Virus record (IMG/VR): IMGVR_UViG_3300009168_000004
Location: 1-64,000 of that record
Direction: 5' to 3' (one strand)
Length of the DNA: 64,000 nt
Origin: a virus
Below are positions 9,764 through 63,122 of the stretch, piece by piece. The notes beneath the pieces are model-generated. The model searched no databases. It saw only the letters and a list, made by a program, of their open reading frames with translations, and was not told the DNA's origin. Position 1 is the first letter of the stretch, and the number at the start of each line of letters is the position of its first letter. The position numbers were made by a program, and so were the translations under genes.

Positions 9764-9842
9764 CTGCGTGTTCCTTTGTTTCAGTGTCAGCACCATACTG
9801 CAAGAGTGTTTGCAGAGTGTTAACAGCAGAGACTTTGCAGAG

Positions 9843-9871: not shown

Positions 9872-9879
9872 CGGCCGGA

Positions 9880-10324: not shown

Positions 10325-10442
10325 CGCGGGAAAAAATCAAGAGGAAAGTTTGGGGGCCGGACGGCGTGGTCAAAAGTCCGTCAACGAGGTCCAGCAAACG
10401 CCATGAGGTGCAAGAGGTGCAAGAGGTGGCGTGAGGTGGCTC

Positions 10443-10778: not shown

Positions 10779-10958
10779 CGGGGGGCGTGAGGTTCAAGAG
10801 GTTCATGAGGTGCAAGAGGTGCTCATGTGTGGCTCTCATCCTGGGGAACAGCCGACCGGGGCTTTTCGAGAGGGGGCTTCGAAGGGGACGGCCCCGGTCG
10901 GTTTTACTCCCAGGCCAGTACTGACACGACTCAGCTGGGCTGGAGCAGCCAGTGTGGA

Positions 10959-18382: not shown

Positions 18383-18858
18383 ACAGCAGACCACACCAGC
18401 CTCAGAGGTTCCCCCGCGAGGCAGTACTGATGGACAAGCTTGCCCAAGCGATCGATCTCGAACCCGAAGTCCGCCAGGAGCTGCCCCCGGCGGACGCCCC
18501 CGAGGCGGTCCGGGCCGGAATGGTCCTGCCTGACTACGTCACGCACATGGACGGGGCGACCCGGTCCGGGATGCTCTCGGCTGCCGCCGTCGTCCGGGAG
18601 TACGAGGCCACGGCCAAGATGATCGACGAGATGGGGCAGGAGCTCCGGGCGTCCCAGGACCGGGTCGCTGAGATGATGAGCACCTACGCCGAGGCGTTCA
18701 AGAAGCTCCAGGACACGGTCCAGGCCTACCGGGACGAGGGCAAGCGGCTGTTCGAGCAGGTCGAGTCCAGCTCCAAGCTGGCCGACCGCGTGTCTGAGAC
18801 CTGCGACATGCTCCGGCGGGAGCTCGAAGAGGCTGGCCGCCGCGACGACAACAGTTGA
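18379..18858 (+). CDS. coiled-coil hypothetical protein
   Basis: 159-aa ORF with heptad-like C-terminal half. Confidence 0.7.
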   Translation: MNSRPHQPQRFPREAVLMDKLAQAIDLEPEVRQELPPADAPEAVRAGMVLPDYVTHMDGATRSGMLSAAAVVREYEATAKMIDEMGQELRASQDRVAEMMSTYAEAFKKLQDTVQAYRDEGKRLFEQVESSSKLADRVSETCDMLRRELEEAGRRDDNS

Positions 18859-18878
18859 CCACAGGGGAGGACGGCAAT

Positions 18879-19277
18879 ATGCCAGCTCAGATCGGACCGA
18901 AGAGGAAGAGGCCCAAGGAGCAGACCAAGCAGATCGACGAGCAGATCGGACTGCGAATAATGCAGCGCCGGAACCAGCTCAAGATGAGCCAGAGCGAACT
19001 GGGGGAGTGCCTCGGCATCACGTTCCAGCAGATCCAGAAGTATGAGCGGGGCCTGAACCGGGTCTCGGCCTCAGCCCTGGTCTTCTTTGCCAAGGCGCTC
19101 AACGCCCCCATCGCCCACTTCTACGAGGGCATCGAGGGCGTGCCCCCGCGGGAGCCCACCGCGATGGACAAGTTCGTCGCCACGCGGGATGGGATCGAGG
19201 GGCTGACAGCCCTGTCGAAGATGAAGCCCCCGCTCCGTCGGGCGTTCATCGACCTGGCCGGACAGGCCGCCAAGTGA
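18879..19277 (+). CDS. XRE/HTH_3 transcriptional regulator (alphaproteobacterial type)
   Basis: IG.RI..RR....MSQ.ELG..LGITFQQIQKYERG.NRVSAS.L. Confidence 0.9.
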   Translation: MPAQIGPKRKRPKEQTKQIDEQIGLRIMQRRNQLKMSQSELGECLGITFQQIQKYERGLNRVSASALVFFAKALNAPIAHFYEGIEGVPPREPTAMDKFVATRDGIEGLTALSKMKPPLRRAFIDLAGQAAK

Positions 19278-26962: not shown

Positions 26963-27417
26963 CAGCTTGGGTCGTCGTCCAGTTCATACTCTTCGAGCGC
27001 AACGCTCCAGTTCACGCCCGCCGCCCACTCCTCCTCGGAGATCGAAAAGCTCATGACGCGCATGACCAGGACCGGCCGGTAGTAGGTCCAGGCCCCTTCG
27101 ACCACGTGGCTACCTGGCACCGCGTCGCGCTCCTGAGCTCCGCCGGAGGTCTTGTACGAGAGGAAGGACAGGCACCTGACGGTCACCAGGGTTCCGGGGA
27201 AGTACGCGAACGGCGGCCGCTGGTCGGCGCCGCTGACGCTCGAGGCGAACAGCTTGAACTGTGGCAGCGAGACGTCGATCAGCTTTCCGTTGATCGACCT
27301 GCGCATCTGCGCCGCCTGCTGGATCGGGGCCAGCGTCTGAGTCAAGCCTCGGGCCGAGTAGGGCGGCAGGCCGGCGCCGCTGATCTCGAGGAGCGTTGAG
27401 AACCCTGGTGCTGGCAT
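26962..27417 (-). CDS. distal tail (Dit)-like protein
   Basis: first gene after TMP; RRSINGKL.D and W.V.LEE motifs. Confidence 0.65.
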   Translation of the reverse strand: MPAPGFSTLLEISGAGLPPYSARGLTQTLAPIQQAAQMRRSINGKLIDVSLPQFKLFASSVSGADQRPPFAYFPGTLVTVRCLSFLSYKTSGGAQERDAVPGSHVVEGAWTYYRPVLVMRVMSFSISEEEWAAGVNWSVALEEYELDDDPS

Positions 27418-37321: not shown

Positions 37322-38545
37322 TCAGGCAGTTCCCTGCGGTGTCTTCCAAGCGTTCTGCATGCGGTTGTTGTAGTCGCTGTAGGACTTCTCTGCAGCCGCC
37401 CGGTCGCCCAGGACCGGCTGGCTGCCGCCGGTGAAGGCCGCCCTGGCGACATCGACTGCGCGGTTGGTGTCGACCGCCTTGACGCTTGCCGTGAGGGTGG
37501 CAAACGACGTGGCAACCTGCTCGTCGGTCCAGCCCTTGGCGACATCCTTGAGCGCGTGGTCGACGACCTGCCGGCGGATCTCCCCGTCGGTCTTGCCGTC
37601 CACCACCAGCTTGTCGCCGAGGATTGCAGCGGCCTTGCCCATGCAGATCGTGCGGTCGGCAACGAGCTGATCGAGCTGCTGCGGGGTCAGCTTGGCGCTG
37701 TCGAGCTGGCTCTTCAGCGTTGCGTTCTCCGCCGTTAGGGTGTCCTTGTCCTTCGACAGGGTGGTGACCTGGGCAGTCATGTCGGTGACCTGCTTGTTCA
37801 GGCTATCCGACACGCTCTTGTGCGTGGCCTCGAGCGCCTTCACCTGGTTGGCGGCGTTGTCGAGGGCGCGCTGCACGACTTGGATCGTCGTGTCGGTCAT
37901 CTCGCAGGTGATGCCGTCCACGGTCATTGTGCGCAGGTTCATTTGGTCTCTCCGGGTTGGGGGTGGTTCAGGCTCAGCGTCTTCGACGCCGAATGGCAGT
38001 TCGTCCCCGACGGATAGCCTGGCTCCGCCGCGGGCCGCTTTCACGAGGGCGATGTGGTTCGCCCGGATGTTGCGTTGGATGGCGTCGTAAGCCTCGCCGG
38101 TCGGCGTGGTGCCGGACGCAACCTCGATGTCGCACGAATACCCGACGGAGAGCTGTCGCTTGCCAGCCTCGATCGCCTTGACGGCGGACGAGTCCATGAA
38201 CAGCATCGGGACGCGGACGTATTCTTGATCTCGGAGGACGTCGCCGTCGCTCTGGCCGACCGCGTACTCGCTCCAGTTTTCGGAGGTGACCTCGACCTTC
38301 GGGTGGTCGTTGGTCAGGGGGCGGTGGGCGAGGGACGCCATCGCGTCCTTGTGGAAGACTTCGCTCTCAGGCCGGTAGACCCGGACGACGTCCTTGTCCG
38401 CCAGCTCGCCACCAATCTCCTTGCCGAGATAGAGTTGAATGCCGGTGCGCGAAACGCGGGGAGCAGCCGCCAGATAGCCCCCGGCCTTCTTGGACATGTG
38501 GGCGGCGTCGAAGGACAGCCGGTCGTACAGGTTCAGCTTGATCAT
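37322..38545 (-). CDS. DUF2213 prohead protease / scaffold
   Basis: RTGIQ.Y, YRP..EVF, T.DHP, LSVGY and NHIALV..ARGG motifs plus a coiled-coil C-terminus. Confidence 0.9.
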   Translation of the reverse strand: MIKLNLYDRLSFDAAHMSKKAGGYLAAAPRVSRTGIQLYLGKEIGGELADKDVVRVYRPESEVFHKDAMASLAHRPLTNDHPKVEVTSENWSEYAVGQSDGDVLRDQEYVRVPMLFMDSSAVKAIEAGKRQLSVGYSCDIEVASGTTPTGEAYDAIQRNIRANHIALVKAARGGARLSVGDELPFGVEDAEPEPPPTRRDQMNLRTMTVDGITCEMTDTTIQVVQRALDNAANQVKALEATHKSVSDSLNKQVTDMTAQVTTLSKDKDTLTAENATLKSQLDSAKLTPQQLDQLVADRTICMGKAAAILGDKLVVDGKTDGEIRRQVVDHALKDVAKGWTDEQVATSFATLTASVKAVDTNRAVDVARAAFTGGSQPVLGDRAAAEKSYSDYNNRMQNAWKTPQGTA

Positions 38546-38570
38546 GCAGCCTCCTTGCGGAGGCCAGGGA

Positions 38571-39305
38571 TCAGGGCCTCCAGTACCGCGAGACCCAGTA
38601 GTCTTCGCGGATGGTCTCGACCTGCCAGGGCTTCCGTCTGCCGTTGAAGAACATGATGCAGGTCCGCTTCGAGATCTCGCGGAGCTTGCGATAGTCGACC
38701 GAGTAGGAGGCCACCGTCGGATAGGTGAAGCCGTCGCACCCTTCGAGACCAACCAGGTTCATGCTCAGCCACGACTGGTCGGAGCCGAGCCACTTCTTCT
38801 TGAACGTCTGAGCTGGGCTGGTGGCCGGGTCGAACTTGGACCAGATGAAGTCGAGGTCTCCGGCTGTGAACATCTGCAGCGAGCCGTTGAAGACCTTCGG
38901 ATGGTGGGCACCCGCGCAGGCCCAGCCCATGAAGCGGAACTTCTCCGTGGACTCGATCATCGGGGTGATGTCGCGCATGATGATCGCGTCCAGGTCGATC
39001 CCCATGATGCGGTGCCCGTCCCGGATCTTCATCTGAAACTGGGTGGCCGGATCGTACAGCTTGAGCCGCCTGTAGCACGACGGCAAATTTCTTTTTGTGG
39101 CGTTGGCCAGGTCTGCACCGTCCGACCACAAGGGATGCGTCTCGCAGGCGAGACCAGTCGGATCGTCCGTGACGCAGACGATGCGATGGGGCACCTTCAC
39201 GTTGGCCTGCAGAGCCTTGACCATCGCGTTTACGTGCACAGCGGAGTAGGTCGCTCGGACTGGGTTCTTCCAGTCGGTCCACTTCCAGAGGACTATGTGC
39301 AGCAT
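38571..39305 (-). CDS. GT-A fold glycosyltransferase (GT8-like)
   Basis: CVTDD, DLD, FNGS, SDQ.W and F.G..KPW motifs. Confidence 0.8.
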   Translation of the reverse strand: MLHIVLWKWTDWKNPVRATYSAVHVNAMVKALQANVKVPHRIVCVTDDPTGLACETHPLWSDGADLANATKRNLPSCYRRLKLYDPATQFQMKIRDGHRIMGIDLDAIIMRDITPMIESTEKFRFMGWACAGAHHPKVFNGSLQMFTAGDLDFIWSKFDPATSPAQTFKKKWLGSDQSWLSMNLVGLEGCDGFTYPTVASYSVDYRKLREISKRTCIMFFNGRRKPWQVETIREDYWVSRYWRP

Positions 39306-49500: not shown

Positions 49501-49903
49501 GGTAGTGGAAGACCGAGGTCGAAGCCCCCTGCTCCCCGGTGGCGCCAGTCTCACCCGGCGGGCCCTGGTCGGCGGCGTCGCCGAACACGGTCGACTGGGC
49601 TGGCCCCAGGGTCCGGACCCGCAGAGGAGCGACGATCGCCCCGTCGTTGTGCTGGAGGAAGACGAGGACCTGCTCCGACGGGTCGTCGTTGTACACGGTC
49701 ACCAGCTCGACCGTCCGGAGGATGCCCGCCCCAGGCGAGGGCGACGCCACGACGGTGCCCCCGCCCGCGTCCGCGACGATCGTGTTGAGCCTCCCCGGCG
49801 TGATCGTGTCGTCGATGGTGGTCTTGTCGACCCACGACGCGTGGACGCGCGCCGCCCTGTCGGTGACGACCTCCAGCGTGTCGCCCTCCTGGAGTATCAG
49901 CAT
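46574..49903 (-). CDS. collagen-like fibre protein with two DUF4082-like domains and a Gly-rich C-terminal domain
   Basis: two long G-X-Y tracts; G.G.P....G..GDYYIDT....LYGPK twice; WGGGGGG domain. Confidence 0.85.
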
Positions 49904-52524
49904 CAGGTTGCCTCATCTTCGCTGTCGTCTTCGTCCTCAGTGATCCGCTCGAACTCTTTGATGCGGCCCTTCTCGTCGTGCTTCGTGACCGTCGTGATCT
50001 CCCGCCCGCCCCTGTTGACGATGGTCACGGGGACGGTGACGTGGATCGTCTGCTCGTCCTTCGGGGCGCGCTTGCTGAGGGCGGTCGCCGCGTCCTTCTG
50101 GGTCTTGAAGTTCCCGATCTTCCCGTTCTTGTCGTCGGCCCTCCACCTCACCGCCTCGCCCCGTCCCGACGCGACCGCACCCCCTGCGCCGCCGGACCTC
50201 TGCTCGTTCGTGACGACCTGCTTGACGGTGCCCACCTTGGTGTTGCCCTTGTAGGCGTTGTAGGACTTGAGCTTGACCGGCGCCTCCTTGCCCAGGACCT
50301 TGGTCTCGCGGTTGTGGTCGGAGGCCTCGTACATGTCCAGGCCTGCGACCTGGCCGGCGAACTTGCCCTTCTCGGTGGTCTCTCCGACCTTGGGCGCAGC
50401 CGCTGCCGCCCCTCCGCCCCCGCCCGATCCGAACTGCCCGTTCTCTGCTCGCTCCTGGTTCTCGTTGTACTCGTCCAGGGCCACCTCGGGGACGTCGGTC
50501 TCGTTGTTGAAGCCCGTCATCTGGATCTCCTGGAAGACCTCGGGCCCGAGGACGATCTCGCCCCGGTAGGGCTCCATCTCGTCGATCTGCTCAGGCCCGT
50601 TGTAGGTGATCGTGACGTGCGGGTTGTAGTCCTCGTAGTCGTACGAGCAGCCCTGGTGCTTCAAGGAGGAGTGGCGCCAGGACAGGTCGGAGTTGCCGAA
50701 GGCGAGGACGACAGCCTTGCCGAACCTCTCGACGATGCGGGGTCCGCCGGGGACGACGCGGATGTGCCCCTCCAGGTCCTGGCCCCAGGCCTCGCCCATC
50801 TTGATCCAGTCGACCGCCTCCTTCGAGTACATGATCGTGACGTGCATCTCGGCCGGGGTGACCGTGGACTTGAAGCCCTGCGAGGCCGCCCAGTCGATGA
50901 TGGCCTGCGCGTTCAGCACCCTGCGGTAGACGTAGAGGGGCTTCGGGGTCGCGTCGGCGAGGGCGTCCCGGACGGCGGCGTTGCCCGACGGGGTCCGCAT
51001 CCTGTCCCTGCCCTTGATCCTGCGGCGCCGCTGGGCAGCCCGGAAGTCGTTGGCCGCCCTCTTGGCCGGGTCCAGGTTGCTGTTGGCGGGCTCGGGCAGA
51101 TCCGCGTCTGGGTCCTCGGGGTCCACCTCGGCGTTCGGGTCAGCGTTCGGATCGACCACGGGCTCAGGTTCTGCGCGCAGACCCTCCTCGTGGTCTGGGT
51201 CGTCGAACTCCTCGATGATCTGCTCGATGCCTGGGTAGGTTCCGTCCTCGATGAGCTGCGCCTCCCTGGCCTTCTTGAGCACCACCGGGTCCAGGATCGC
51301 GGCATCCACGTCCACCTTGAACGTGTCGGCCTTCTTCTTCTCCAGGTCAGCCTTCTGCTCCGGCGTCATCTGCCAGAGGGAGTTCCACACGTAGAAGATC
51401 TCCTCGGGCTTGGAGCCGAGGGCGGACCGGATCAAGACTTCGTCCAGGCGCCAGAGCACCGGGGAGTCGTCGTTCTTCTGCTTCGAGGAGACCGAGTCGT
51501 AGTAGTTCCTGGTGTCGCTCTCGCCCGTCGCGCTCATGCCCGCGGGGGACTGGCCGAAGAAGCGGGTCGCCGGGATGTCGGCTGCGCCGCAGACCATCAG
51601 GAAGTACATCTGCAGGATCTCGGGCAGGGACGCGAACGAGGCCACCTGCCTCTGCCACTCCTCCTCCTTGTCGATCAGGAGCATGGAGTGCACGCCCTTG
51701 ATGATGTTGGCGAGGCCGAACCGCTCGAGCAGGTTCCGCTCGTAGGTCCTGGATGAGATGTTCAGCGTCAGCCCTGGGATCTTGATGATGTCGATCTTCG
51801 ACTCCGCCACGAGCTGAGCCACCGACGCAGTCACCAGGCCGCAGGACTTGATGGCGTCGGCGACGTTCAGCAGGACGGAGTCGCCCCAGGGCTGCTTGGT
51901 CGTCAGGACGTCCTGTCTCGGCATCCCGACGAAGGGGACGACGCGGCTCGGGTGGAAGCGGACCAGGGTGCCGTTGAACAGGGAGTGGCGCTCGTAGTAG
52001 GAGGGCTCACCGTACCAGGGCGAGGTGATGTCGTCGATCATGGGGCCAGGCGACACGTCCCAGCGGCTCACCGGGTGCAGGAACTCCAGGTCTCCGACCC
52101 TGACCGCCTCGATGTCCACCGGGGTCTCGTTGGATGCGCCCTTGATGCCCATGACGATGCCGGCGCCCCCGTAGAGCCGAGCCTTCTGCTTGGCCACCTT
52201 CATCTTCTGCTGCAGGCCAAGGCGCTGCTCCTCCGCCTCGATCGCCGTGATCTCCTCCGGGTCGCCGGCCTGCCAGGACCGCCACTCCCTGGTGGCGTCC
52301 TCCGCCGGAATGTCGATGAGCTTCCGGGCGATCCAGTCGCCGCGGTAGGCCGCGTCGGCCTGCGCCTGGTCCATGTCCGGCATGACCCAGTTGACGCCGG
52401 TCATCTTGTCCTTGGCCGTGCCGAGGCCCGTCGCCAGGTTCTCCAGGCTGTCCCGCGCAGACTTCTGGCTCGGTGGGGGCTTGGATGCCCGACGGGTTGG
52501 TGCGGAAGCTGCTCTCTTAGCCAT
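49903..52524 (-). CDS. portal protein (DUF1073) fused to an Acb1-like 2H phosphoesterase and further C-terminal modules
   Basis: follows TerL; RLYGG, HPSRV and IP.TR.FGQSP.G.SATGE.D..NYYD portal motifs; HVTIMYS and PHVTITY. Confidence 0.88.
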
Positions 52525-54070
52525 CTGTGTTACCCCTGACCCAACTGAGCGATGTGTCGTAGTTGTAGGTCTTCTCGATCATCTTGTTGAAGGCGCCGGC
52601 CGAAGCGTCCACCTGGTCCTTGAACTGGCCCGACGGGAAGGCTTCGTGCTCGTTGATGAAGTCCCGGTTCCACTTCTTTCGCAGGAGCTTGACGTTGCCT
52701 GCCTGCACCGCAGCCGCGTAGGGCTCGGCCCGGACCTCCTTCTTGCCGGTCACCCGGTCGATGAAGCAGAGGTGCCCGTGCAGGTTGGCGACCGTGCGCT
52801 GCGCGCTCTCCTTGCCGCCGGACCCCGGCTCCTGCTCCACGTAGACGACGGTCCGCTGGATGCTGTCGTCCAGCTCGGCCGTCGCCTTGATCTTGGTCTC
52901 TCGGGTGTAGGCGTCCCACTGGCCCCGGACGACGTCCTCGACGATCACGGTGCCGTCGGCCATCTGGTTCATGAGCACGCCCGCCGTGTGGGCGCCGCCT
53001 CCGGACGTGCCGGCCTTGTCCCAGTACCTGACCCGCTTCTTGATCTCGGACTGGGGGAACGAGCCGATGATGCGCATCTCCTCGATGGGGAACATGCCGC
53101 CGCCCTGGATGATCGGGTTCTGCTGATACAGGCTCTCCCACGAGACTTCGGTGTAGGTCTTCCGCTGCTCCAGGAGGAACTCCAGGGACTTGAACTCTGG
53201 GAACAGGGCCTCGCCGACGGACCGGGGCTCGCAGTTCACCCGGATCGACTCCTCGGTGGCGAAGGCCGGGTAGCGGAGGATGGTCATGTCGGGGAAGCGC
53301 TCGATCAGTCGGCCGGCGGGGTCGTCCACGTGCCACCTGGTGACGGTCATGAGCATGCCCGCCCGGTCGTCGAACCGGGACATGAAGTCGTCCGTCATCC
53401 AGGACCAGGTCTTGTCTCGGATGGTCGGCGACTGCGCCTCGCCCCGGCCCTTGATCGGATCGTCGACCACGCCGAAGTCCAGCGACTTCCCGGTGATCTG
53501 CCCGTCGGGGGCGGTCGTGTTCTCGAAGTAGCCCTTGCGCCCGACGAAGTGCATCAGGTGGCTGTTCCGCTGGTACTGGCCCGCGTACTCGCCGCCGCCC
53601 TTCAGGGGCAGGATGCGCGTGTCCGGGAACGCCCTCTTGAAGCGATCGTCCTCGAACCGCCTCTGCAGCTCCGTGTTGGTCTTCGTGCCCAGGTCGCCCG
53701 AGTACGATGCGAAGATCGTCCGGAAGTCGGGCTCGTGCCCGTGGAACCAGGACACCCCGTCCTGCACGCTCCTGGACTTTCCATGTTGCGGCGGAGCCAT
53801 CAGGAGCAGCTTCGGCCGGTGGCCGTTCTTCAGGCGGATGAAGAACCTCTGCAGGAGGCCGCTGACCTGGCGCGGCCACCAGCCGACCCGCATCTCGGGG
53901 TCCATCATCTTGCGGTAGGCGTACAGGTTCTCCCTGGCCTCCGCCGCTTGCAGGTCCATGATCAGGTCCAGGTCCTGCTGGGTGAACCTGGGGCGGTTGC
54001 GGCTGTCGTGCTCTGCGCGGGCGATGGCCTCCCTGATCTGCTCCTTGCGGGGGTTGTGCGCGTCCATCAT
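52517..54070 (-). CDS. terL: terminase large subunit
   Basis: APPQHGKS Walker A, VVDDPIK Walker B, TRWH.DD, RYWD.A, EQEPGSGGK and DQVDA motifs. Confidence 0.95.
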   Translation of the reverse strand: MMDAHNPRKEQIREAIARAEHDSRNRPRFTQQDLDLIMDLQAAEARENLYAYRKMMDPEMRVGWWPRQVSGLLQRFFIRLKNGHRPKLLLMAPPQHGKSRSVQDGVSWFHGHEPDFRTIFASYSGDLGTKTNTELQRRFEDDRFKRAFPDTRILPLKGGGEYAGQYQRNSHLMHFVGRKGYFENTTAPDGQITGKSLDFGVVDDPIKGRGEAQSPTIRDKTWSWMTDDFMSRFDDRAGMLMTVTRWHVDDPAGRLIERFPDMTILRYPAFATEESIRVNCEPRSVGEALFPEFKSLEFLLEQRKTYTEVSWESLYQQNPIIQGGGMFPIEEMRIIGSFPQSEIKKRVRYWDKAGTSGGGAHTAGVLMNQMADGTVIVEDVVRGQWDAYTRETKIKATAELDDSIQRTVVYVEQEPGSGGKESAQRTVANLHGHLCFIDRVTGKKEVRAEPYAAAVQAGNVKLLRKKWNRDFINEHEAFPSGQFKDQVDASAGAFNKMIEKTYNYDTSLSWVRGNTDG

Positions 54071-55158
54071 CAGAATGCAAAGCTCACGTTGGTGGCTTCG
54101 ACCTTGTCGACGTCGAGCGGGTCGTCCGGGTCCGTCTTGAACGTGATCGAGACCGTGATCGTGCCTGGCCCCCTCTTGGTCTCCCCCGTGTTGAAGGTCT
54201 TGTAGACCCCGGCCATCTCGTCCTCCGGGAAGCGCCCGACGTCGTCGTGGTCGACGTTCGGCGGGAAGAAGGCCGGGGCGCCTGCGTAGAAGTCGACGTC
54301 GGCGTTGAAGATGTCGTCGGTCGCGACGTCCTCGGGCTGAACCACCGGCCACGCCTCGTACCCCATGACCTTCAGGTACCGGGCGAACCAGAGCTTGCCC
54401 TCGTAGCTGGCCTTGCCGCCGATCGCCCCCGGACGGGACCAGGTCACGTCGAAGGTCACCACCTTCTGGCCGACGGCGACAGCGGCAGACTTGAGGGCGT
54501 CGTAGGCGATCCAGATCAGGCGCGTGCCCGGACCGACGGTCTGGGTCTTGGACGCTCCGACCTCGTCGTGGCCGGCAGTCTCGGTCAGCAGGAAGATGTC
54601 CCAGTTGAAGCCGGCCAGGCCGATGTCCGTCGCGATCGACATGGCGAGGACGTTCGAGTAGAGCGAGCTGGCATCGTCGGGCGCAGTGTAGTCTGAGCCG
54701 CCCGCTCCATTCCACGAGACTGTGAACGGCACCTCCTGCTCGCCGAACGGATCGAAGCCGGAGGAGCAGATCGCCCCGGTCAGCGTGTCGATGAGGACGT
54801 ACTCACCGGCGTCGATCACGTGGAAGGTCAGCCCGGAGAAGACCTTCGACCTGGGGTCGGCCACCGCAGGGAACGCGTGGAACTTGTTGGGGGCTGCGGT
54901 GAAGGCGGGCACGGGGTCGGCTTCGCTGCCCGGAGGGGCAGACACCTTCTCTGGGAACGGGCCGTAGGCCAGGACGCCGTCCTGCCAGCCGAACCAGGGG
55001 AAGTCCGACTGCAGAGTGATGCGGACGCTGGGGTCCGTGCCCCCCGACGGGATGCTCGAGTCGACCTGCCCCATGCCCTGGACGAACAGCAGGAGATACC
55101 GGCCTCCGGGCCAGTTCACGTTCACCAGGTGCTGGGTGGGGTCGTGGGCTAGCGGCAT
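54070..55158 (-). CDS. hypothetical, probable virion protein
   Basis: 362-aa acidic beta-rich ORF starting MPLAHDPTQHLVNVNW; TGATG-coupled on both sides. Confidence 0.7.
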   Translation of the reverse strand: MPLAHDPTQHLVNVNWPGGRYLLLFVQGMGQVDSSIPSGGTDPSVRITLQSDFPWFGWQDGVLAYGPFPEKVSAPPGSEADPVPAFTAAPNKFHAFPAVADPRSKVFSGLTFHVIDAGEYVLIDTLTGAICSSGFDPFGEQEVPFTVSWNGAGGSDYTAPDDASSLYSNVLAMSIATDIGLAGFNWDIFLLTETAGHDEVGASKTQTVGPGTRLIWIAYDALKSAAVAVGQKVVTFDVTWSRPGAIGGKASYEGKLWFARYLKVMGYEAWPVVQPEDVATDDIFNADVDFYAGAPAFFPPNVDHDDVGRFPEDEMAGVYKTFNTGETKRGPGTITVSITFKTDPDDPLDVDKVEATNVSFAF

Positions 55159-55835
55159 CAGCGTGCAGTCCGGCCGAAGGTTCGCTTTGGGAGGTAGCTG
55201 TCGGCCCCTGGGGGCTTGCGGAGGGGCTGGACGCTGGCCCGGTGGTGATACGGGCAGTAGGCCAGCGGACGCGCTCGGCTGGCCCCTGAGGCCCGTGGCG
55301 CGTCGCACACCAGCCCGTCGGGCATCGGCCACTGGCAGCGATCGCCCTCGGGGACGGTGGCATCCCCTGCCGAGGTCGCCATCGGACCCTCGAGGCTGGC
55401 GGCTCCCTTGGTTTCCTTGGACTTCGGAGGCCTCACCTGGTCGATCTGCATGGTCCTGGACACAAACACGGTGGTGTTCCCCATCCCCATGTTGACCCTG
55501 CCAGCCCGAGGCTCAGGTCCGGTCTGAGTGTCCTGGGACTTGTAGTTCGCCTTGGCTCTGACCCTGCTGATCTGACGCATCTTCACGTCCATCCGCACGC
55601 CAGTTGCCCTGCCGGCGGTCCTCGGATACTTCTTCTGCAGGTCGAGGCGGTGGATCTTGCCCCCGACGGCAGAGATCGTGAAGGTGACACAGGAGCGGGG
55701 GAACTCCGCCCGCATCGCCTTGACGATCTTGGCGATCGTCAGGTAGGCCCCGCGCGTGCCCGAGTACAGGAGCTCGAGGTGCGCGATCTCCTGAGAGGTC
55801 CACCTGCTGTTCGGGGAGTCGGTCTTTGTCATCAT
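55158..55835 (-). CDS. gcrA: GcrA-like cell-cycle regulator
   Basis: WT..EI..L..L, T.SAV.GKIHRL.L and CQWP...C...YCPYH motifs. Confidence 0.8.
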   Translation of the reverse strand: MMTKTDSPNSRWTSQEIAHLELLYSGTRGAYLTIAKIVKAMRAEFPRSCVTFTISAVGGKIHRLDLQKKYPRTAGRATGVRMDVKMRQISRVRAKANYKSQDTQTGPEPRAGRVNMGMGNTTVFVSRTMQIDQVRPPKSKETKGAASLEGPMATSAGDATVPEGDRCQWPMPDGLVCDAPRASGASRARPLAYCPYHHRASVQPLRKPPGADSYLPKRTFGRTAR

Positions 55836-56125
55836 CAACAGAAGTCTCGTTTTGTTGCGTACAAGTTTAACGACCAATCCTCATGGTCTTTCTACGTTGA
55901 CAGCATTCTCGTTTTCCTGACAGCAATTGCATCCTTCTGTTCTCATGACCTTTCTACGTTGACAGGAACTTCGTTTTGGAACCAGCAATTGCATCCTTCT
56001 TTTCTCATGACCTTTTGGGGTTAACAGAAATCTCGTTTTCCGCGTTGCAATTGCATGCTTCAGTTCTCATGGTCTTTTGGGGTTGACAGAAATCTCGTTT
56101 TGACCCGTAGAAGTTTAACTGATCC

Positions 56126-56418
56126 TGTGAGCCACATACGCCGGGTGTGTGCCTCATCGGCCGGCCAGTGTGCCGGATGTGTGGCCAGAGGTTCAGGTGT
56201 GAGCCGCATACGCTAGCAGTGTGCCTCATCGGTCGGTTCCCCGACAGGTGTGTGGCCAGAGGTTCAGGTGTGAGCCCTCATTGCCAGGTGTGAGACTCAC
56301 AGGCGCGGACGGGATCTTGTGCGACGGGTGCAGATCCGATGTGTGGCTCACTGGCCGGGTTGTGAGGCTCACTGCTCCGCTGTGGTCCGGATGTGGGGCG
56401 TGTGTGCCAGGTGTGTTG
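56126..56418. repeat. second repeat family with 71-72-bp TGTG-rich units
   Basis: TGTGAGCC.CATACGC...GTGTGCCTCATCGG...GTGTGGCCAGAGGTTCAGG at 56126 and 56198, partial at 56269. Confidence 0.85.
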
Positions 56419-56637
56419 GTCAACAGAAGTCTCGTTTTAGTCCGTACAAGTTTAACTTCCATTCCTCATCTTCTGCCAACGTTAACAGGAACTTCGTTTT
56501 GATCCAAGCAATTGCATCGATCAGTTCTCATCTTCTGCCAACGTTAACAGAAATCTCGTTTTAGCCGACGCAAGTTTACCGATCTTTCCTCATGGTCTTT
56601 CTACGTTAACAGAAATCTCGTTTTATTCAGTGCAAGT

Positions 56638-56985
56638 TTAACTGCACTCCTCCCGGAAGCGCCGGCAGTTGCCCTGGCCTCGGTCCCCGCGTTCGTCCTT
56701 GAACATGCAGGCGCGGCGCAGCCGCTCGCAGCGGCCACCTCTACCACCGCCACCAATGATGTCGCCGATGCCCCCAATGACGCCGCCGCCGCCGCCGCCT
56801 CCCCTTCCACCGCGCTCATCTCCGCACTGCTCTCGGAAGCGCCGGCAGTTGCCGTCGCCCCGCTCGCCCAGCGAGTCACGCATCAGGCAGGCTTGGCGCA
56901 GAGATCGGCAGTCTTGTGCCTCGACGAGGGTCGGGATCAGCCCGACGGTTGCGAGGGAAGCGGCGATCAGGAGTGCCTTGAGCAT
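56638..56985 (-). CDS. secreted Cys-rich protein with a duplicated four-Cys module
   Basis: signal peptide ending VEA; C..LR.AC..(R/K)D..G(E/D)RG.GNCRRFRE.C twice, Gly linker. Confidence 0.75.
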   Translation of the reverse strand: MLKALLIAASLATVGLIPTLVEAQDCRSLRQACLMRDSLGERGDGNCRRFREQCGDERGGRGGGGGGGVIGGIGDIIGGGGRGGRCERLRRACMFKDERGDRGQGNCRRFREECS

Positions 56986-57283
56986 TTGGTTGTTTCCCCT
57001 TGGTTGACAGAAATCTCGTTTTGGAACCAGCAAGTTTACCGATCCGCTCTCATCTTCTGGTGACGTTGACAGAAATCTCGTTTTATTCCCAGCAAGTTTA
57101 CCGACCGATCCTCATCTCTCTTCAACGTTGACAGAAATCTCGTTTTGATCAGTGCAAGTTTACCGATCAATCCTCATGGTCCGTTGGGGTTGACAGAAAT
57201 CTCGTTTTGATCGGTAGAAGTTTAGCTTTCAGCTCTCATCTTCTGCCAACGTTGACAGAAATCTCGTTTTCCTGACAGCAAGT

Positions 57284-57760
57284 TTAATCATCCTCGCCTG
57301 TCGTCTGGAAGGCTTCGTCCTCGATCTCAGTAAACTCTGCGTCCACGACCGACGGGTCGTCGGGCAGGGATGGGTCGTGCTCGATCAGGGTCGGCGGGCG
57401 GTAGCCCCGGTCCAGGAGCTGCTGCCTGAGCTGGGCGGCGGTCATCTTCGGGCCGCCGTCTGCGCCGACCGCCGCAGCCGTGATCGTCGCATCGACCTGC
57501 TTGGGGATGATCTTGCCGACGAGCGGACCGAAGATGTCGGGCTTCTTGCGGGACAGCCACACCAGGTAACCGATCGCTCCGTCCTTGCCCTTCCCGTCTG
57601 ACCCGCTCTTGTGCATGGCGTCGATCACGAGCTCTTGGACGATGCGCCCGTTCTTGTTGGGAATGCCCTTGCGGGTCTTCGTGGCCTTGTCGCCCTTGTG
57701 GAGCGGCTTGAGGCCCCGGTATTGGGGCAGGTCCAGCTTCGGAGATCTTGATCCGGCCAT
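57284..57760 (-). CDS. terS: terminase small subunit (probable)
   Basis: RKGIPNK, G..GYL.WL....P..F..LVGKIIP; upstream of TerL. Confidence 0.65.
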   Translation of the reverse strand: MAGSRSPKLDLPQYRGLKPLHKGDKATKTRKGIPNKNGRIVQELVIDAMHKSGSDGKGKDGAIGYLVWLSRKKPDIFGPLVGKIIPKQVDATITAAAVGADGGPKMTAAQLRQQLLDRGYRPPTLIEHDPSLPDDPSVVDAEFTEIEDEAFQTTGEDD

Positions 57761-57879
57761 CCGACACCAAATCTAGTTGTTTGACGGACCGATGAAGGAA
57801 CCGAACCTGGGCGTCGACCTGGCCGAGCGACGATAGGGGCCGCTTCCGGACCTTTTTCGAAACCACAAACTCCTATTAG

Positions 57880-58170
57880 GAACGTTCGCTGGACCCACCG
57901 GACCCGACGGTCTGGACGGGGAGGGGCTCCCTATACTGCTCCTACCCTTATTTTAACCCCTTTTCCCCCCTTTCCTACCCGACGGGACAGCATATTCTCA
58001 CACACACACGTGCAAAGAATATCCGTCCAGGCGTCCAGTTCCTCGGCTAACCATCTTGTAATCAAACAATTTTTTGATAGGACGCGTCACTGGACGCCTG
58101 GACACGAAAATGGCGGCACCCGTTTTCTGATCTGGACGGCCCGACGGGTGGAGGACGGGTCCGGACGGGT
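57880..58170. other. candidate replication origin
   Basis: 15-bp perfect inverted repeat (58025-58039 / 58089-58103) around an AT-rich core, GGAC(G/C) repeats, directly downstream of the primase-helicase. Confidence 0.5.
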
Positions 58171-60947
58171 CAGCCCAACGGGGGCACCCGTCCGCGATGC
58201 TGCCGGGGTACTTCCGCGTTCAGATCCTGGTCCGTTCGGCTCAGGGTGGTGTGTCCGCCCTGCCGGTTCGCAAGGAACCCAGCCCTCGCATTCCAGTGCG
58301 CCAGCCCCGCCTCGTTCAGCTTCAGACCGCCCACGTGCCGCTGCGGCTGCCCGAACTTGTCGAACTTGAACATTGCGCTATCCGGGTGGAACTTCAGGGC
58401 CTTCGCGAATGCGCCAGGCGACGGGATCGGCAGGCCGTGGTTCTCCTCTCGCCAACTGTGAAACGCCGCGTAAAGATCCGCGCTGACGTTCATCGCGGTC
58501 CGGTCGTACTCGCAGCAATCCCTGACGAAGCCGATCGAGATGTTGCTGTCCTCCCGGAGCTCAGCCGAGGCCTCGTCCATGTCAGGAGTGTACGAGTAGT
58601 GGCCCCTCGCCAGGGCCCGCTTCATCCCGGCAATAGCCCAGTTCAGGACGCCTGACTTCTCCTCCTCAAGCACCCAGTCCGCCGGAGACGAGTAGCCCCT
58701 CGCAACCGCCTCAGCGGCCACGCCCGTCGGGCGCAGGGGGTCGAACACCGTCCGGATGCGCAGGATGGCCAGGCGGTTCTCCATTGCCCTGCTCATCTCC
58801 CTGAACTGCGGCATCACGTTCGCGCCCCAGAACGACGGCCCGCGGTAGACGTGCGCGGTCTGGGCACCGTTCTTGATGTTCACCCCGACGGGGTCCGACG
58901 ACAGCAGCGCCTTCACCATCGAGCTGATCTCCCACTTGGACTGATCGAAGGCTTCGTGCAGGACCCAGGGCACGCTGCGGAGGAACGGCTCCGTGCCGTG
59001 CGGCTTTGAGAGCTGGTCGATGGGCTGCGTGATCGGGGCGTTCGTTATCAGGCCGCTGAGGACGTTCAGGAGGGTCGACTTGCCGGAGTTGCTCTCGCCG
59101 ACCAGGACCAGAGCCCGCATCAGCGCCTTCTGCTTCCGGGCCAGGAGCGCCATGCCTAGGTTCTCCTGGATGAATGCGACCGCGCCGTCGTCCTTCACGA
59201 TGTCCTTGAGCGTCCGCATCCAGATCGGGCAGGCGGCCGCCGGGTCGTACTCGCACTCGATGCGGGCTGTGGCGTAGTCGTCCGGCCTATGCGGCCGGTG
59301 GTGCATGGTTTCCAGGTCGACCAGGCCTGACTGCGTTGAGATCATCCCGTGCGCGTCCCACTGCACGTCAGCTTCGTCCTGGTGGATCTCCCCCATCCGC
59401 TGCAGGTGGGCGATCGTCTCATTGATCACGGTCGTCGTGGGCACGATGCCCAGGGCGTCGCACCCGACGTTGATCTCTCGAGCTAACCAGGACTTTTCCT
59501 CCTTCGTCACCCCGTACATCGCCCACAGCCCATCCCGGTAGCGCCAGGGCACAGAGCCGATGTACATGAGCTGCTCGCCCCGCTGCTCCAGAGCTGCCAG
59601 GACGCCGGCGGCCAGGACCACGTGGGCGTCCTTCTTGCCCTTTTTCTTCCTCCCCTCCTTGGGCTCAGGCCGGGGCTCGCTCTTCCGCTGCGCACGGACC
59701 TGGTCGAGGTGCACCACCTGGGCAGCCCTCCCCGTCGGGCGGGGTGCTGGCTTCGGCATGGAGGCGAGCTGCTGCATGCCCCGGTTGGCCTGCAGGGAGG
59801 CCAGCTCCGGCGGCTCCCCGCCCATCGCTTCGTCTAGGATCTCGCCGCTGTCGTCCTCAGGATCGTGTGAGCCCTCATCGGCCGTGAGTGCCCTCTCTTC
59901 CTCCACTTGGTCCTCTGGCGGCTCCGCCGGGAACTCGTGGCCCACCTTCTTGATCCACCCCCGCATCGCGCCTCGGACCTTCCGGCGCTCGACGTCCATG
60001 TTCCAGCTGTCCTCGGCGACGCGCTCTAGGGCCTCCATCATCTTGGCCTCGACGAAGTCCTCGGTGTAGCCCTGGGACAGCATGCCCGACGTGACGTCGC
60101 GGATGGTCAGGTGGACGGAGAAGGTCTCGTCTATGCCCTCGTCCCGGCGCTGCTCCAGGTACTCCATCCGGGCCAGGCGGTCCCGCCAGTCGATGTGGTC
60201 GGTGTAGCCCTGCAGCTCAGCCACCCGGAGGAACGGGTTCTCCTGCTCCGCCACCTTCCGCTCCCGGACCTTTCGCGTCAGCACTGGAGGGGCCTCCTGG
60301 GCGGCCAGGGAGCCCAGCCAGGCGCTCAGCACCGCTCGGGGGTACCTTTCCCCCTCGCCAGCCAGCACGCGCACCAGCGCCCACGCCCCGGCTTTGGTGT
60401 TGTGGGTTCCCGGAACCCGGAGCAGGGTGACAGCGTGCCGGGTCGCCTTGTCCCCCGCCAGGTGGTTTCCAAGGACTTGGAGTTCCGCCTCGTAGGCTCT
60501 GACGTCCTCGGGTCCGGGCGCATCCGTCGGGTCGGTGAAGAACCAGTAGGCGTGGACGCCCCCTCCGGACCTGTGCATTCGGCTGGGCGGGTTCGGCAGG
60601 GCGGCCAGGGCTGCCAGGACCTCGTCCTCGGTGTTCAGGATGTCCTTGAAGTCGATGTCGACGTGCAGGCACGTCAGGGCGGCCACGTTGGGCTTGACCC
60701 GCTTGTGCCCCTTCAGGATCGGGCTGACGCAGTGGAAGCAGCCCCGCTCGGCCCTGTCGTGCTTGACCAGGAACCGGCGGATGCGCTCTGGGTCCCTCGT
60801 CAGGACGTGGACTTCGCCCTTGCCTGACTGGCCCCGGACGTTGGGCAGGCTGCACACGTAGACGGGGTGGTCGTGCCCCTGCAGCATGTAGTCGACATAG
60901 AGCGTCAGGTCGGCGCCGGGGCCGACTTCTTCGTTAATCTCAGTCAC
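58170..60947 (-). CDS. AEP (RepB-like) primase / D5-P4-type SF3 helicase
   Basis: LHVDID, SGGGVHAYW, LRVPGTHN; D5_N-like region; GESNSGKST Walker A. Confidence 0.9.
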   Translation of the reverse strand: MTEINEEVGPGADLTLYVDYMLQGHDHPVYVCSLPNVRGQSGKGEVHVLTRDPERIRRFLVKHDRAERGCFHCVSPILKGHKRVKPNVAALTCLHVDIDFKDILNTEDEVLAALAALPNPPSRMHRSGGGVHAYWFFTDPTDAPGPEDVRAYEAELQVLGNHLAGDKATRHAVTLLRVPGTHNTKAGAWALVRVLAGEGERYPRAVLSAWLGSLAAQEAPPVLTRKVRERKVAEQENPFLRVAELQGYTDHIDWRDRLARMEYLEQRRDEGIDETFSVHLTIRDVTSGMLSQGYTEDFVEAKMMEALERVAEDSWNMDVERRKVRGAMRGWIKKVGHEFPAEPPEDQVEEERALTADEGSHDPEDDSGEILDEAMGGEPPELASLQANRGMQQLASMPKPAPRPTGRAAQVVHLDQVRAQRKSEPRPEPKEGRKKKGKKDAHVVLAAGVLAALEQRGEQLMYIGSVPWRYRDGLWAMYGVTKEEKSWLAREINVGCDALGIVPTTTVINETIAHLQRMGEIHQDEADVQWDAHGMISTQSGLVDLETMHHRPHRPDDYATARIECEYDPAAACPIWMRTLKDIVKDDGAVAFIQENLGMALLARKQKALMRALVLVGESNSGKSTLLNVLSGLITNAPITQPIDQLSKPHGTEPFLRSVPWVLHEAFDQSKWEISSMVKALLSSDPVGVNIKNGAQTAHVYRGPSFWGANVMPQFREMSRAMENRLAILRIRTVFDPLRPTGVAAEAVARGYSSPADWVLEEEKSGVLNWAIAGMKRALARGHYSYTPDMDEASAELREDSNISIGFVRDCCEYDRTAMNVSADLYAAFHSWREENHGLPIPSPGAFAKALKFHPDSAMFKFDKFGQPQRHVGGLKLNEAGLAHWNARAGFLANRQGGHTTLSRTDQDLNAEVPRQHRGRVPPLG

Positions 60948-61035: not shown

Positions 61036-61914
61036 TCAGCGGCGCCTTGCGGTGCCGCCGTTCTTCTTGGCAGGTGCAGCAGCCCTCTGCGCCGGAGTGG
61101 CCGCGCGCTGGTTCGGGCGGGCTGCCCTGACGGGAGCCTCCTCAGCCTGCGCCTCGGCCTCCTCGCCGGCCTCCTCCCCCTCGTCGCCAGCGTCAGCCGG
61201 GTCGGAGGGGGTGTACTCGAACAGGGACTTCTCCTCCCATCCGACGACCTTCATCGTCGGCACCTTGATCCATCCGAACTCGGGGTTGGAGTGCTTGTAC
61301 TTCCTGACGCCGACGGCCACGATCGGCCACTCGTCGGGACGGGTCCGCATCTCCTTGCCGTAGACTTTGCAAAGGTCGCCCATCATGCCCAGGCCGCCCT
61401 TCGACGAGGTGGCGAACGTGAACAGCTGCTCCTCCTCGGCTTGGTCCCCTGGGGTCTTGAGGAGCAGGTAGTTGCTGTACTGCCAAGGGTCCCGCGCCTT
61501 GCCCTGGTCGTCGACCTCCCACTGCTCCTCGTCGGAGTCACCCAGCTCTTCGCGTCGAGCGGGCCGGAAGCCGGACGCCAGCGGACCCATGAGCTGTTCC
61601 GCGGGCTTGTTGTCCACCCACTTGATCCAGCCGATCATGAGCTGGTTCATGTTGCAGGTGTACTCTGTGCCCTCTTCGATCTCCTCGTCGTCCTCGCCGC
61701 ACAGCCAGTCCCCCTTGTTGAACTTCAGGAGCTGCCCGACGATGAACCGACCGGCGAACTGGTCGCCGTAGGCCTCGAAGGCGTTGCGCTCGTTCACTCC
61801 GCCGACGGACGTCTGGGCGGGTCGGGCCACGGCGGTGCCGGTGCTCGGTGGTGCCTCGTCTGCTGGCGGGATGATCGTCTCACGGTTTGGTGCGCGTGGT
61901 GTGCTTCTTACCAT
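61036..61914 (-). CDS. phage ssDNA-binding-like protein
   Basis: G.LLKF.KGDW, GWIKW.D.KP and DPWQ motifs, acidic tail; position in replication module. Confidence 0.65.
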   Translation of the reverse strand: MVRSTPRAPNRETIIPPADEAPPSTGTAVARPAQTSVGGVNERNAFEAYGDQFAGRFIVGQLLKFNKGDWLCGEDDEEIEEGTEYTCNMNQLMIGWIKWVDNKPAEQLMGPLASGFRPARREELGDSDEEQWEVDDQGKARDPWQYSNYLLLKTPGDQAEEEQLFTFATSSKGGLGMMGDLCKVYGKEMRTRPDEWPIVAVGVRKYKHSNPEFGWIKVPTMKVVGWEEKSLFEYTPSDPADAGDEGEEAGEEAEAQAEEAPVRAARPNQRAATPAQRAAAPAKKNGGTARRR

Positions 61915-62021
61915 TTTTCTGTCTGCCTTCTGCTGTTTCACTGCTTGCTGCTTTCGATCCACATCGGGCAGGGTGCCCTAGTGGGGACGCAACGTGGTGG
62001 AGAGTGATGTTCCCACCCCGC

Positions 62022-63122
62022 CTATCCGCGCGCCCGGAGCTGCTTCTTCCGGGGCGTGGAGTTCTTTGTGGCCTCAGCCTCGAGCGCCACCCTGACCATC
62101 AGCATGTCCGACGGGTCGCCGGTCGTGCTGTATGCCTCGACGTCCACGCCAGCCTCGGTTGCTGCGGCGCGGATGCCCTTCATGTCGTAGTTCCGCCGGC
62201 CCTTCACGGCCGACCAGGTCACCACGCCGGGGATGCGGCGGATGCCCTTGTCCTTCAGCCTGTCCTTGATGAGCTGCTTCTGGGTGTTCAGGGCGATCTC
62301 GGCCTTGTCTTTCAGGCCGTCCAGGCGCTCGTGCTCCCGGCACAGGTCGGTGATCTCAGCGGTGAACTGGGGGTCGGCTGCCGCCTCAGACTCCGGGACG
62401 GAGTGGCGGACGATGCCGCAGGCCTGGGTGAACGGGCAGTACTCGCACTCCTTGCCGCCGGCGATCCACCCCTCCGGGGGCAGCTCGTCGGGGCGGGTTG
62501 CGGTCTTGATCCGGACGGCGCGCTTGTGGCCTGCGTCGTAGACCTTCGGGTCGAACTTGATCGCGAACTCGTGGACTTCGTCCAGGAAGGAGGCGTCCAT
62601 GTAGGACAGGATCGCGTACTCCGGCTTGTAGACGGTCAGCTCCCGGACCAGGCCGAGCTGCATCTGCGTCTGGAACTCGTTCTCCTCCTTGGCCCTCGAC
62701 ATGTTCACGCGGGGGTCCACCGACTTGCACTCGACCAGGACGCACTGCCCCGCGCCGATGTCAGCGATCCCGAAGTCCTTCAGGAGCAGGTCCCGAGGCT
62801 GGTCGATCAGCAGCCCGTCTGGGGTCGCCGACGCGTATCGGTCGTTGAAGGTCTTCTGGTCCTTCCCGGCCCACAGGAGCTTCTTGCCGTACTTCCTGCG
62901 CATGGCGGGGACGTAGAAGTGCTGCTCGAGCAGCTTGCCCCTGGCCCTGGCGCCCCATCGGTCGCCGTGCCCCTCGTCCACTCGCCCCTCGGTCTTCACC
63001 CAGTACATCCTGCGGGAGCAGAGCCCGATCTCCGACGCGCCGATCGTGCGCTGCCGGTCCATCACGAACGTCGTCTCCATCGTTGGTGACAGCGCGTAGG
63101 CTTCCAGGGCTTCTCTAATCAT
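62022..63122 (-). CDS. Cas4/RecB-like PD-(D/E)XK exonuclease
   Basis: GASEIG.C.R, ATPDG, VECKS, Q.Q.Q and C..CP....C motifs. Confidence 0.85.
   Translation of the reverse strand: MIREALEAYALSPTMETTFVMDRQRTIGASEIGLCSRRMYWVKTEGRVDEGHGDRWGARARGKLLEQHFYVPAMRRKYGKKLLWAGKDQKTFNDRYASATPDGLLIDQPRDLLLKDFGIADIGAGQCVLVECKSVDPRVNMSRAKEENEFQTQMQLGLVRELTVYKPEYAILSYMDASFLDEVHEFAIKFDPKVYDAGHKRAVRIKTATRPDELPPEGWIAGGKECEYCPFTQACGIVRHSVPESEAAADPQFTAEITDLCREHERLDGLKDKAEIALNTQKQLIKDRLKDKGIRRIPGVVTWSAVKGRRNYDMKGIRAAATEAGVDVEAYSTTGDPSDMLMVRVALEAEATKNSTPRKKQLRARG

Follow-up and report, generated by a model that had tools for sequence, protein, structure and literature searches.

The first 64 kb (positions 1–64,000) of an IMG/VR viral contig (record IMGVR_UViG_3300009168_000004; hereafter the window) carry, next to a gene that we assign to the small terminase subunit (TerS), a tandem array of fourteen 62-bp units arranged in three blocks. 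The array is real, non-coding, and under selection on both the sequence of its short boxes and the length of its unit. Its architecture has no described counterpart, yet it lies within the known broad class of tandem cis-acting phage and plasmid repeat arrays. As to function, we favor with moderate confidence a DNA-level element made of phased composite protein-binding sites.

Geometry and anatomy of the array

A scan of the window for GTTRACAG-N4-YTCGTTTT, allowing up to three mismatches, returned 14 sites, all on the plus strand, against a mean of 0.53 for the same pattern in shuffled sequence. The sites fall at 55834+62n (five units), 56419+62n (four units) and 57003+62n (five units), and Tandem Repeats Finder reported three period-62 tandem arrays. 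Together these results reproduce the 14 units, exact 62-bp period and three blocks reported in a preliminary description of this DNA. Its observations on spacing and fillers were also confirmed in this phage: the blocks start at intervals of 585 and 584 bp, and the fillers are unrelated, one being a 301-bp GC-rich second repeat family and the other a 362-bp gene-bearing stretch. The three blocks are mutually out of 62-bp register (585 mod 62 = 27). They are also the phage's three most AT-rich 200-bp windows, at 40–44% GC compared with 64.5% overall. A pattern search of the 5.77-Mb metagenomic bin containing the phage contig found no further copy of the motif, and a position weight matrix scan of the phage found no array box elsewhere, including upstream of other genes.

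Each unit consists of four boxes, read on the plus strand, separated by variable patches of fixed length. Box 1 (unit positions 1–8, GTTRACAG) is followed by a semi-variable 4-mer, box 2 (positions 13–20, YTCGTTTT) by the variable patch N7 (positions 21–27), box 3 (positions 28–36, GCAAGTTTA) by nine variable bases, and box 4 (positions 47–51 in the column table, CTCAT) by 11 variable bases. Box 3 takes the form GCAATTGCA in four units, three of which lie in block 1 (55834–56117, five units). Block 2 (56419–56640) has four units, and block 3 (57003–57286) has five, the last one in plus-strand coordinates being truncated after box 3. The alternation of conserved and variable patches noted in the preliminary description is real by column conservation: of the 62 columns, 26 reach 90% identity or more among the 14 units, and 15 do not exceed 55%.

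The contrast between neighboring patches is sharp. Mean pairwise identity is 0.97 in box 2 but 0.34, close to random, in N7, which has 12 alleles among the 14 units; nevertheless, none of the 11 full unit intervals contains an insertion or deletion. Because the spacers are near-random in sequence and never change in length, unit length must be constrained. Composition follows the same division, with conserved columns at 36% GC and variable columns at 49% in a phage of 64.5% GC, which suggests that the boxes are kept AT-rich by selection. Box starts recur roughly every 15–16 bp by inspection, a half-period signal at lag 31 stands above background in blocks 2 and 3 (0.40–0.42 vs. 0.27), and a GTTGRCAGAA-type near-palindrome spans 5 of the 11 unit junctions; the lag-31 signal and the junction palindromes are typical of protein sites. 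Taken together, the fixed boxes, the free spacers of fixed length and the half-period signal show selection on box sequence and spacing, and a young neutral duplication would look different. The array is not ordinary coding sequence either, since its period is not a multiple of 3 and the GC content of third codon positions (GC3) collapses across the blocks in a frame plot. Whatever its function, it offers a clean case in which box sequence and spacer length are strongly selected although the element belongs to no known family, and the 62-bp, four-box unit is compact enough for direct biochemistry.

The blocks abut genes closely. Read along transcription (minus strand), block 3 starts at the stop codon of terS and stops 17 nt short of the ATG of a gene for a secreted mini-protein; block 2 runs from the stop codon of that gene to the second repeat family, and the degenerate end unit of block 1 overlaps the ATG of a GcrA-like gene. 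The TAA stops of the terS and secreted-protein open reading frames (ORFs; 57284–57760 and 56638–56985) both occupy unit positions 34–36 (the TTA of GTTTA), in units starting at 57251 and 56605, respectively, so that the placement of both stops on the TTTA of a block's last unit, as first described, is confirmed by coordinates. Such a position is expected where a GC-rich ORF enters an AT-rich unit, and by our own estimate the chance of both stops falling on the core TAA is about 1 in 9.

The insertion, its relatives and its strains

The genes of the phage lie nearly all on the minus strand. Along transcription, the GC3 frame plot gives the order primase-helicase, 409 bp of non-coding DNA, a 158-aa ORF, block 3, the 115-aa secreted ORF, block 2, the second repeat family, block 1, the GcrA-like gene, gene X and the gene for the large terminase subunit (TerL). 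The 158-aa ORF (57284–57760, minus strand) was called TerS, as the preliminary description had proposed, because, in at least 15 relatives, tblastn located a homologue immediately upstream of TerL. The assignment is one of synteny and not of a named family: the protein matches phrog_11043, profile searches gave no Pfam or PDB match, and its AlphaFold2 model is poor (pLDDT 58.6). Its homologues are 140–210 aa long, with a basic N-terminus and an acidic C-terminus.

Downstream of block 1, the 228-aa GcrA-like protein (55158–55844, minus strand) combines an N-terminal helix-turn-helix (HTH) with a C-terminal C.WP...YC..H motif, and matches Pfam GcrA at E = 5e-5, below the curated cut-off. Genes of this type, with a W..EE HTH and the C.WP...YC..H motif, also fill the terS-terL gap in the relatives L112 (7365–8015), L078 (8446–9297), L069 (9030–9791) and L134 (2637–3164). 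Since the gene stands regularly between terS and terL in this uncultured phage group, it may have a role linked with the terminase operon, in place of host cell-cycle control or in addition to it. Next comes gene X (54070–55161, minus strand), a 363-aa ORFan identified in the frame plot, whose ATG overlaps the GcrA-like stop as ATGA and which has no PHROG, IMG/VR or Atlas relative. It is followed by TerL (52517–54070, minus strand; 517 aa as called in the protein database). On the other side of terS, a 925-aa D5-type primase-helicase (58170–60947, minus strand) is the last gene of the replication module.

In L112, which has the exonuclease, nucleotidyltransferase and primase genes in the same order as well as TerS and TerL, terS overlaps the start of the GcrA-like gene by 25 nt. 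Because this junction is normally tight in relatives, positions 55845–57283 form a lineage-specific insertion of 1.44 kb, within which lie the second repeat family, all three blocks and the gene for the secreted protein. No part of its content has a homologue in any fetched relative by tblastn. The 115-aa secreted mini-protein (56638–56985, minus strand), which has a signal peptide and a body rich in Cys and Gly, is apparently cargo of the insertion. The second repeat family (56118–56418, 63% GC) comprises about ten copies of a TGTGAGCC.CA-like 14–21-mer, spaced 20 and 51–52 bp (a 71–72-bp period) and including palindromes GTGAG.CTCAC; it resembles a cluster of operators or iterons for some other protein, and L112 lacks it.

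Alone among the scanned relatives, L076 (52% TerL identity) has a complex repeat region, 1.1 kb long at positions 800–1900, with four to six 60-bp units on both sides and, in the center, about 20–25 copies of the 12-mer ATGAGCCGCAAA interleaved with CGTTCTCCAAC...GTTGACGGG. This region lies 7–8 kb from terS among unrelated genes and is not positionally homologous to the insertion. An 11-mer, TGTGAGCCGCA, is nevertheless common to the L076 12-mer and the second repeat family here, which hints that a common DNA-binding protein serves both.

Tandem and k-mer repeat scans found no comparable array in IMG/VR TerL relatives, in 80 JGI metagenome loci, in 76 GTDB genome loci or in two complete related phage genomes. 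These array-negative relatives share 44–57% TerL identity and were scanned over 8–10 kb upstream of TerL; closer TerL proteins (60–68% identity, on 74–81-kb contigs) lie outside the scanned set. Nor was an array found in L158 and L159, IMG/VR relatives through the GcrA-like gene, gene X and TerS. Exact-pattern scans of IMG/VR with the box 1+2 and box 2+3 patterns gave single chance matches only, the whole region had no blastn match in phage and plasmid collections, a 9-kb query had no megablast match among phages, and we found no described equivalent of the architecture in the literature.

Near-identical strains in other soil and sediment samples do carry the array, with differences in length. 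In contigs from two samples (X2 and X3), block 2 is a net 62 bp shorter, which leaves a hybrid unit, and the filler contains a 73-bp duplication; the X2 contig also shows a 124-bp 'goes back'; these contigs are low-depth, and the two samples agree. Strains thus differ by whole 62-bp units and by the 73-bp duplication, so the 62-bp quantum is kept and the 585-bp spacing is not. The preliminary description had placed length under selection at both scales. The unit scale holds, given the saturated spacers of fixed length and the whole-unit steps between strains, whereas the block spacing varies even between near-identical strains. Lack of conserved spacing in relatives, named in that description as a refuting observation, is thus seen for the 585 bp, and it extends to the array as a whole, which relatives at 44–57% TerL identity do not have.

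Alternatively, the blocks could be a self-propagating minisatellite or recombination scaffold derived from one intergenic element, with boxes persisting by gene conversion or unequal crossing-over and the blocks serving mainly as homology for gain and loss of cassettes, which here would be the second repeat family and the gene for the secreted protein. Of known elements, the PeSL-type mobile regulatory cassettes of T4-like phages come closest. The array is lineage-specific and varies among strains in steps of whole units, with a hybrid unit among the variants, and two unrelated cassettes lie between the blocks. Spacer alleles are also shuffled: CCTGACA and GGAACCA are common to blocks 1 and 3, and CTTCTGCCAAC to blocks 2 and 3, so units have swapped segments. 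However, gene conversion alone cannot explain 26 fixed columns beside near-random 7–12-bp patches of fixed length, and it leaves unexplained why the fixed columns are the AT-rich ones. We therefore consider this explanation unlikely.

Proposed phased binding sites and other possible functions

The strict register of the boxes, their free spacers, AT-richness, half-site palindromes, single orientation and near-integral helical spacing are the reasons why we favor action of the array as DNA rather than RNA. In such a model, the array would present 14 composite sites in the same orientation to a sequence-specific DNA-binding protein, each unit offering four short AT-rich boxes about 15.5 bp apart whose register is held by fixed-length spacers of free sequence. 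As 62 bp corresponds to about 5.9 helical turns, bound proteins would lie on nearly one face of the DNA and could coat or loop about 1.4 kb. The earlier remark that 62 bp is about six helical turns, with one orientation throughout, is borne out in that this geometry suits a bound protein.

Which protein might bind is a more tentative matter. Of the roles considered, we rate as most likely, though with low confidence, an accessory region for packaging recognition: the array would be a pac-type landing pad where TerS, perhaps together with the GcrA-like protein, gathers on the concatemers of a headful phage. Like pac sites, the array adjoins terS, with block 3 starting on its stop codon. The contig ends overlap by 123 bp to give a 75,212-bp circle, consistent with circular permutation, and Yersinia phage PY100, reported as a headful/pac packager (PMC8583763), is among the nearest cultured TerL relatives at about 36% identity. 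The circular assembly and the distant relationship of its TerL to that of a pac phage make this phage probably a headful packager. Described pac sites, SPP1 pacL/pacR among them, are found in or beside terS and contain repeated boxes to which TerS binds (PMC6316719), and the 20-bp core here includes AGATTT..CTG, weakly like the P22 pac sequence AAGATTTATCTG (PMC11447400).

Several observations weigh against a packaging role. Phages with the same TerS family (TerL 44–57% identical) have no array in the 8–10 kb upstream of TerL, and the two complete relatives have none anywhere. Given these relatives and the terS overlap in L112, the array cannot be an ancestral or obligatory pac, and it is an accessory or replacement signal at most. 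Fourteen sites over 1.45 kb, interrupted by a gene and other repeats, are far larger than any described pac, unit copy number differs between near-identical strains, and TerS itself is identified solely by synteny. Should the array prove to be a TerS landing pad, it would show that phages can acquire a pac-type signal by way of one large insertion, modular and expandable, instead of evolving it inside terS, and the 14 units would supply natural composite-site variants for studying how small terminases read DNA.

The positions of the blocks relative to genes bring up transcriptional control. A phage or host regulator could bind the units as operators, as upstream activating sites or as roadblocks of the 'stoperator' type, and so control, independently of terS, how the secreted-protein gene and the late genes (the GcrA-like gene, gene X and terL) are expressed. 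Each block terminates at an expressed feature: block 3 just short of the secreted-protein ATG with its ribosome-binding site GGGGAAAC, and block 1 on the GcrA-like ATG. All units are oriented along transcription. The insertion also broke the overlap between terS and the next gene that is seen in L112, so a new control region would have been needed. A parallel exists in phage TLS, where 18 unexplained repeats of 21 bp lie between genes, every one of them ahead of a start codon and in the same orientation as transcription (PMC11447400). Promoter elements, however, are missing: no σ70-type −35/−10 pair (16–18 bp apart) occurs on either strand of 55000–58400. Although box 1 contains a perfect TTGACA in 8 of 14 units, N7 stands where its −10 partner would be, and the TTGACA points against all genes. 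In addition, no box lies upstream of any other phage gene, neither a phage sigma factor (region 4 domain) nor an RNA polymerase was found on the contig, and 14 tandem copies far exceed any known operator set. On balance, a regulatory array seems doubtful, if somewhat plausible.

With no terminator detected anywhere from the primase gene to terL, the blocks probably form part of the late mRNA, where they could act as an AU-rich repeated leader, as a sponge for a protein or RNase, or as an array of translated mini-ORFs. Read on the minus strand, the unit is TAAACTTGC-N7-AAAACGAGATTTCTGTCAAC-N11-ATGAG-N10, with ATG then AGR in all 11 linkers. Seven units encode 5-codon ORFs ending on the TAA of the next core (MRIGR twice, MRIDR, MRADR, MRKDR, MRAES and MRNGS), and four GCAATTGC-type units encode 21-codon ORFs whose terminal TGA overlaps the next ATG as ATGA. 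This arrangement of ATG, TAA and ATGA extends through all 11 linkers, the two MRIGR copies differ by synonymous changes only, and 55000–58400 contains no terminator-like site. On the other hand, no Shine-Dalgarno sequence is spaced so that it could serve the mini-ORFs (the purine runs are 0–3 nt from the ATG), mini-ORF GC3 is 0.35–0.5 compared with about 0.85 in phage genes, and a frame that stays open across 20 codons has a chance of about 0.27 in this composition by our estimate. As RNA, the array has no stable or unit-wise fold (z-scores of −1.73, +0.99 and −1.85, none better than shuffles on either strand) and no Rfam match at E ≤ 1, so structured RNA was rejected and the processed RNA array suggested earlier finds no footing. 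A type III toxin-antitoxin system of the ToxI kind also fails, because there is no intrinsic terminator in 55000–58400 and the downstream genes encode the secreted mini-protein and the GcrA-like protein, not a ToxN-like toxin. A function at the RNA level is accordingly quite unlikely. If the array were regulatory, RNA-level or a decoy, it would be an uncharacterized non-coding accessory element in phages of GC-rich soil bacteria.

The AT-richness of the blocks could also mark a replication origin, with the second repeat family as iterons and the flanking blocks as the unwinding region. The blocks are the most AT-rich windows of the genome, the second family has 20–21-bp spaced repeats and palindromes, and the locus lies 0.9–2.3 kb downstream of the primase-helicase gene. 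Box 2 (ATCTCGTTTT) also weakly resembles the AT-rich 13-mers of unwinding elements. When compared with iterons (direct repeats of about 17–22 bp at helical spacing), the 62-bp units do not fit; the second family, with its 20/51-bp spacing and AT-rich flanks, does, but the insertion encodes no initiator. Moreover, L112 shares the replication module (primase 43–50% identical) and lacks the whole insertion, no GC skew signal marks the array, and an unwinding region needs no four boxes in strict register. Both phages instead carry, immediately downstream of the primase gene, another non-coding stretch that is AT-rich and contains repeats. Here this is the 409-bp candidate origin at 57761–58169, between primase-helicase and terS, with GTCCAG/CTGGAC direct and inverted repeats, an A/T-rich center and a GT-run followed by TATGCT; the equivalent in L112 is an AT-rich repeat-bearing gap at 6062–6312. 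Judged by these features, 57761–58169 is likely a better origin candidate than the array, and/or a late control region, and an origin within the array is improbable.

AT-rich islands present in many copies in a GC-rich genome could, finally, titrate a host factor, such as an AT-preferring silencer of the H-NS/MucR type or the −35-binding region of σ70, for which the perfect TTGACA without a −10 element in 8 of 14 units would be suitable bait. The boxes are not enriched in the bin, however. In five related-prophage genomes and in 401 sampled genomes (the class of one of those five), matches were about equal to those of a reversed-pattern control; together with the bin, these sampled genomes also speak against a host repeat family. 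We give such a host-factor decoy, also among the early suggestions, very little credence. Only slightly less remote is a broader role as a phage-borne sponge, apart from packaging or replication, either as DNA (14 phased sites titrating a host factor) or as late RNA, in which the 11 coupled AUG-AGR mini-ORFs or the AU-rich boxes would sequester ribosomes, tRNA-Arg, an RNA-binding protein or a nuclease. If true, this would be a new class of non-coding host-takeover or anti-defense element, mobile with the secreted mini-protein.

Other element classes were examined and rejected. GcrA, named earlier as a possible binder, is not indicated by the GcrA/CcrM target, since GANTC occurs in none of the units and the two sites within 55834–57300 are both in fillers. 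The proposed centromere-like partition site finds no support, because a Pfam ParB_N search of the whole bin matched contig C171 only and not the phage contig. An attP site was rejected for want of a tyrosine integrase on the contig. The array is not of the CRISPR type either: N7, the patch that varies most, falls within the 36-bp core, what would be 26-bp 'spacers' share CTCAT and recur between units, and no Rfam CRISPR family matched. There is no tRNA or tmRNA in the window. By eye, the units gave no convincing match to a CtrA box, Pho box, alphaproteobacterial SOS box, σ54 or ECF/EcfG −35/−10 site, IHF site or tyrosine-recombinase core symmetry.

The phage genome and comparison with known systems

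Because the 75,335-bp contig (C31) closes on itself, into a circle of 64.5% GC inside a bin of 70.6% GC, it represents a complete phage genome that ended up in a bacterial bin. The phage is uncultured and comes from soil or sediment. Its TerL is at best 39% identical to that of cultured phages. Among genomes, its nearest TerL relatives belong for the most part to prophage-like loci of Alphaproteobacteria, in keeping with the GcrA-like gene; the bin, whose family has 9–14-Mb genomes, is thus probably not the host. Other assigned genes encode a tape-measure protein (27417–29579), head maturation protease (37322–38752), an 873-aa portal (49903–52524), nucleotidyltransferase (61036–61962), RecE/Cas4-like exonuclease (62022–63122) and DNA polymerase A (64674–66644). 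GC skew was uninformative. Residues 538–650, in the C-terminal extension of the portal, match the RNA-ligase PHROG phrog_755 (E = 5e-19), and a cI-type HTH repressor-like gene (18855–19277, plus strand) is among the few plus-strand genes, with no integrase found on the contig.

Two other sets of repeats occur in the window. Three nearly identical elements of about 75–80 bp (TTTTCTGCAAAGTCTCTGCTGTTAAC...TTGCAGTATGGTGCTGACACTGAAAC) lie at 9150–9880 on the minus strand, each before a small gene and at least one of them behind an obvious hairpin terminator. They resemble early promoters repeated as cassettes, with a −35 region that is non-canonical, and share only the 8-mer CTGTTAAC with the 62-bp core. 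Runs of the 9-mers TTGCACCTC / TTGAACCTC (minus strand) at 10405–10428 and 10789–10820 flank a 111-aa ORF (10443–10778) that weakly matches the sigma-factor PHROG phrog_3282 (E = 4e-4), and which could be a small regulator with its own operator repeats. Between 6590 and 14439, genes for an amidoligase, a gamma-glutamyl cyclotransferase-like protein, dCMP deaminase, nucleotide pyrophosphohydrolase, a thymidylate-synthase-like protein and a DNA methyltransferase suggest DNA hypermodification, perhaps of thymidine, in which case the T-rich array would be densely modified.

Among known systems, lambda bar minigenes and the ToxI type III antitoxin RNA are short repeated units in phage transcripts. 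The array resembles them in its AUG-AGR mini-ORFs and in its tandem units of tens of nucleotides, but it lacks a Shine-Dalgarno sequence, an adjacent endoribonuclease toxin gene, a terminator and a conserved fold, and its unit is 62 nt long. The stoperators of L5 are co-oriented intergenic phage repeats. Like these and the 21-bp repeats of TLS (PMC11447400), the units are asymmetric and co-oriented, abut stop and start codons, and have no recognizable promoter. Those repeats, however, are single copies dispersed over gaps, whereas here 14 stand in tandem at one locus.

The F sopC centromere (12 × 43 bp) and the iterons of P1 and R6K are tandem arrays. They share with the 62-bp units a single orientation, a period near whole helical turns, variable copy number, and conserved cores (protein-binding in the known systems) separated by less conserved DNA. 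The array differs in having no ParB or initiator encoded nearby and a longer, four-box unit, and in that a separate, better origin candidate is present and the closest relative with the same replication module has no array.

Compared with pac regions (SPP1 pacL/pacC/pacR and P22 pac in gene 3), which span about 20–250 bp and contain few boxes, the array is much larger, with 14 × 62-bp units over 1.45 kb in three interrupted blocks. It is also absent from phages of the same TerS family and variable in copy number among strains. In common with pac regions, it consists of repeated short boxes in or beside terS that would act in cis, and the binding of TerS, known for pac, is a candidate activity here.

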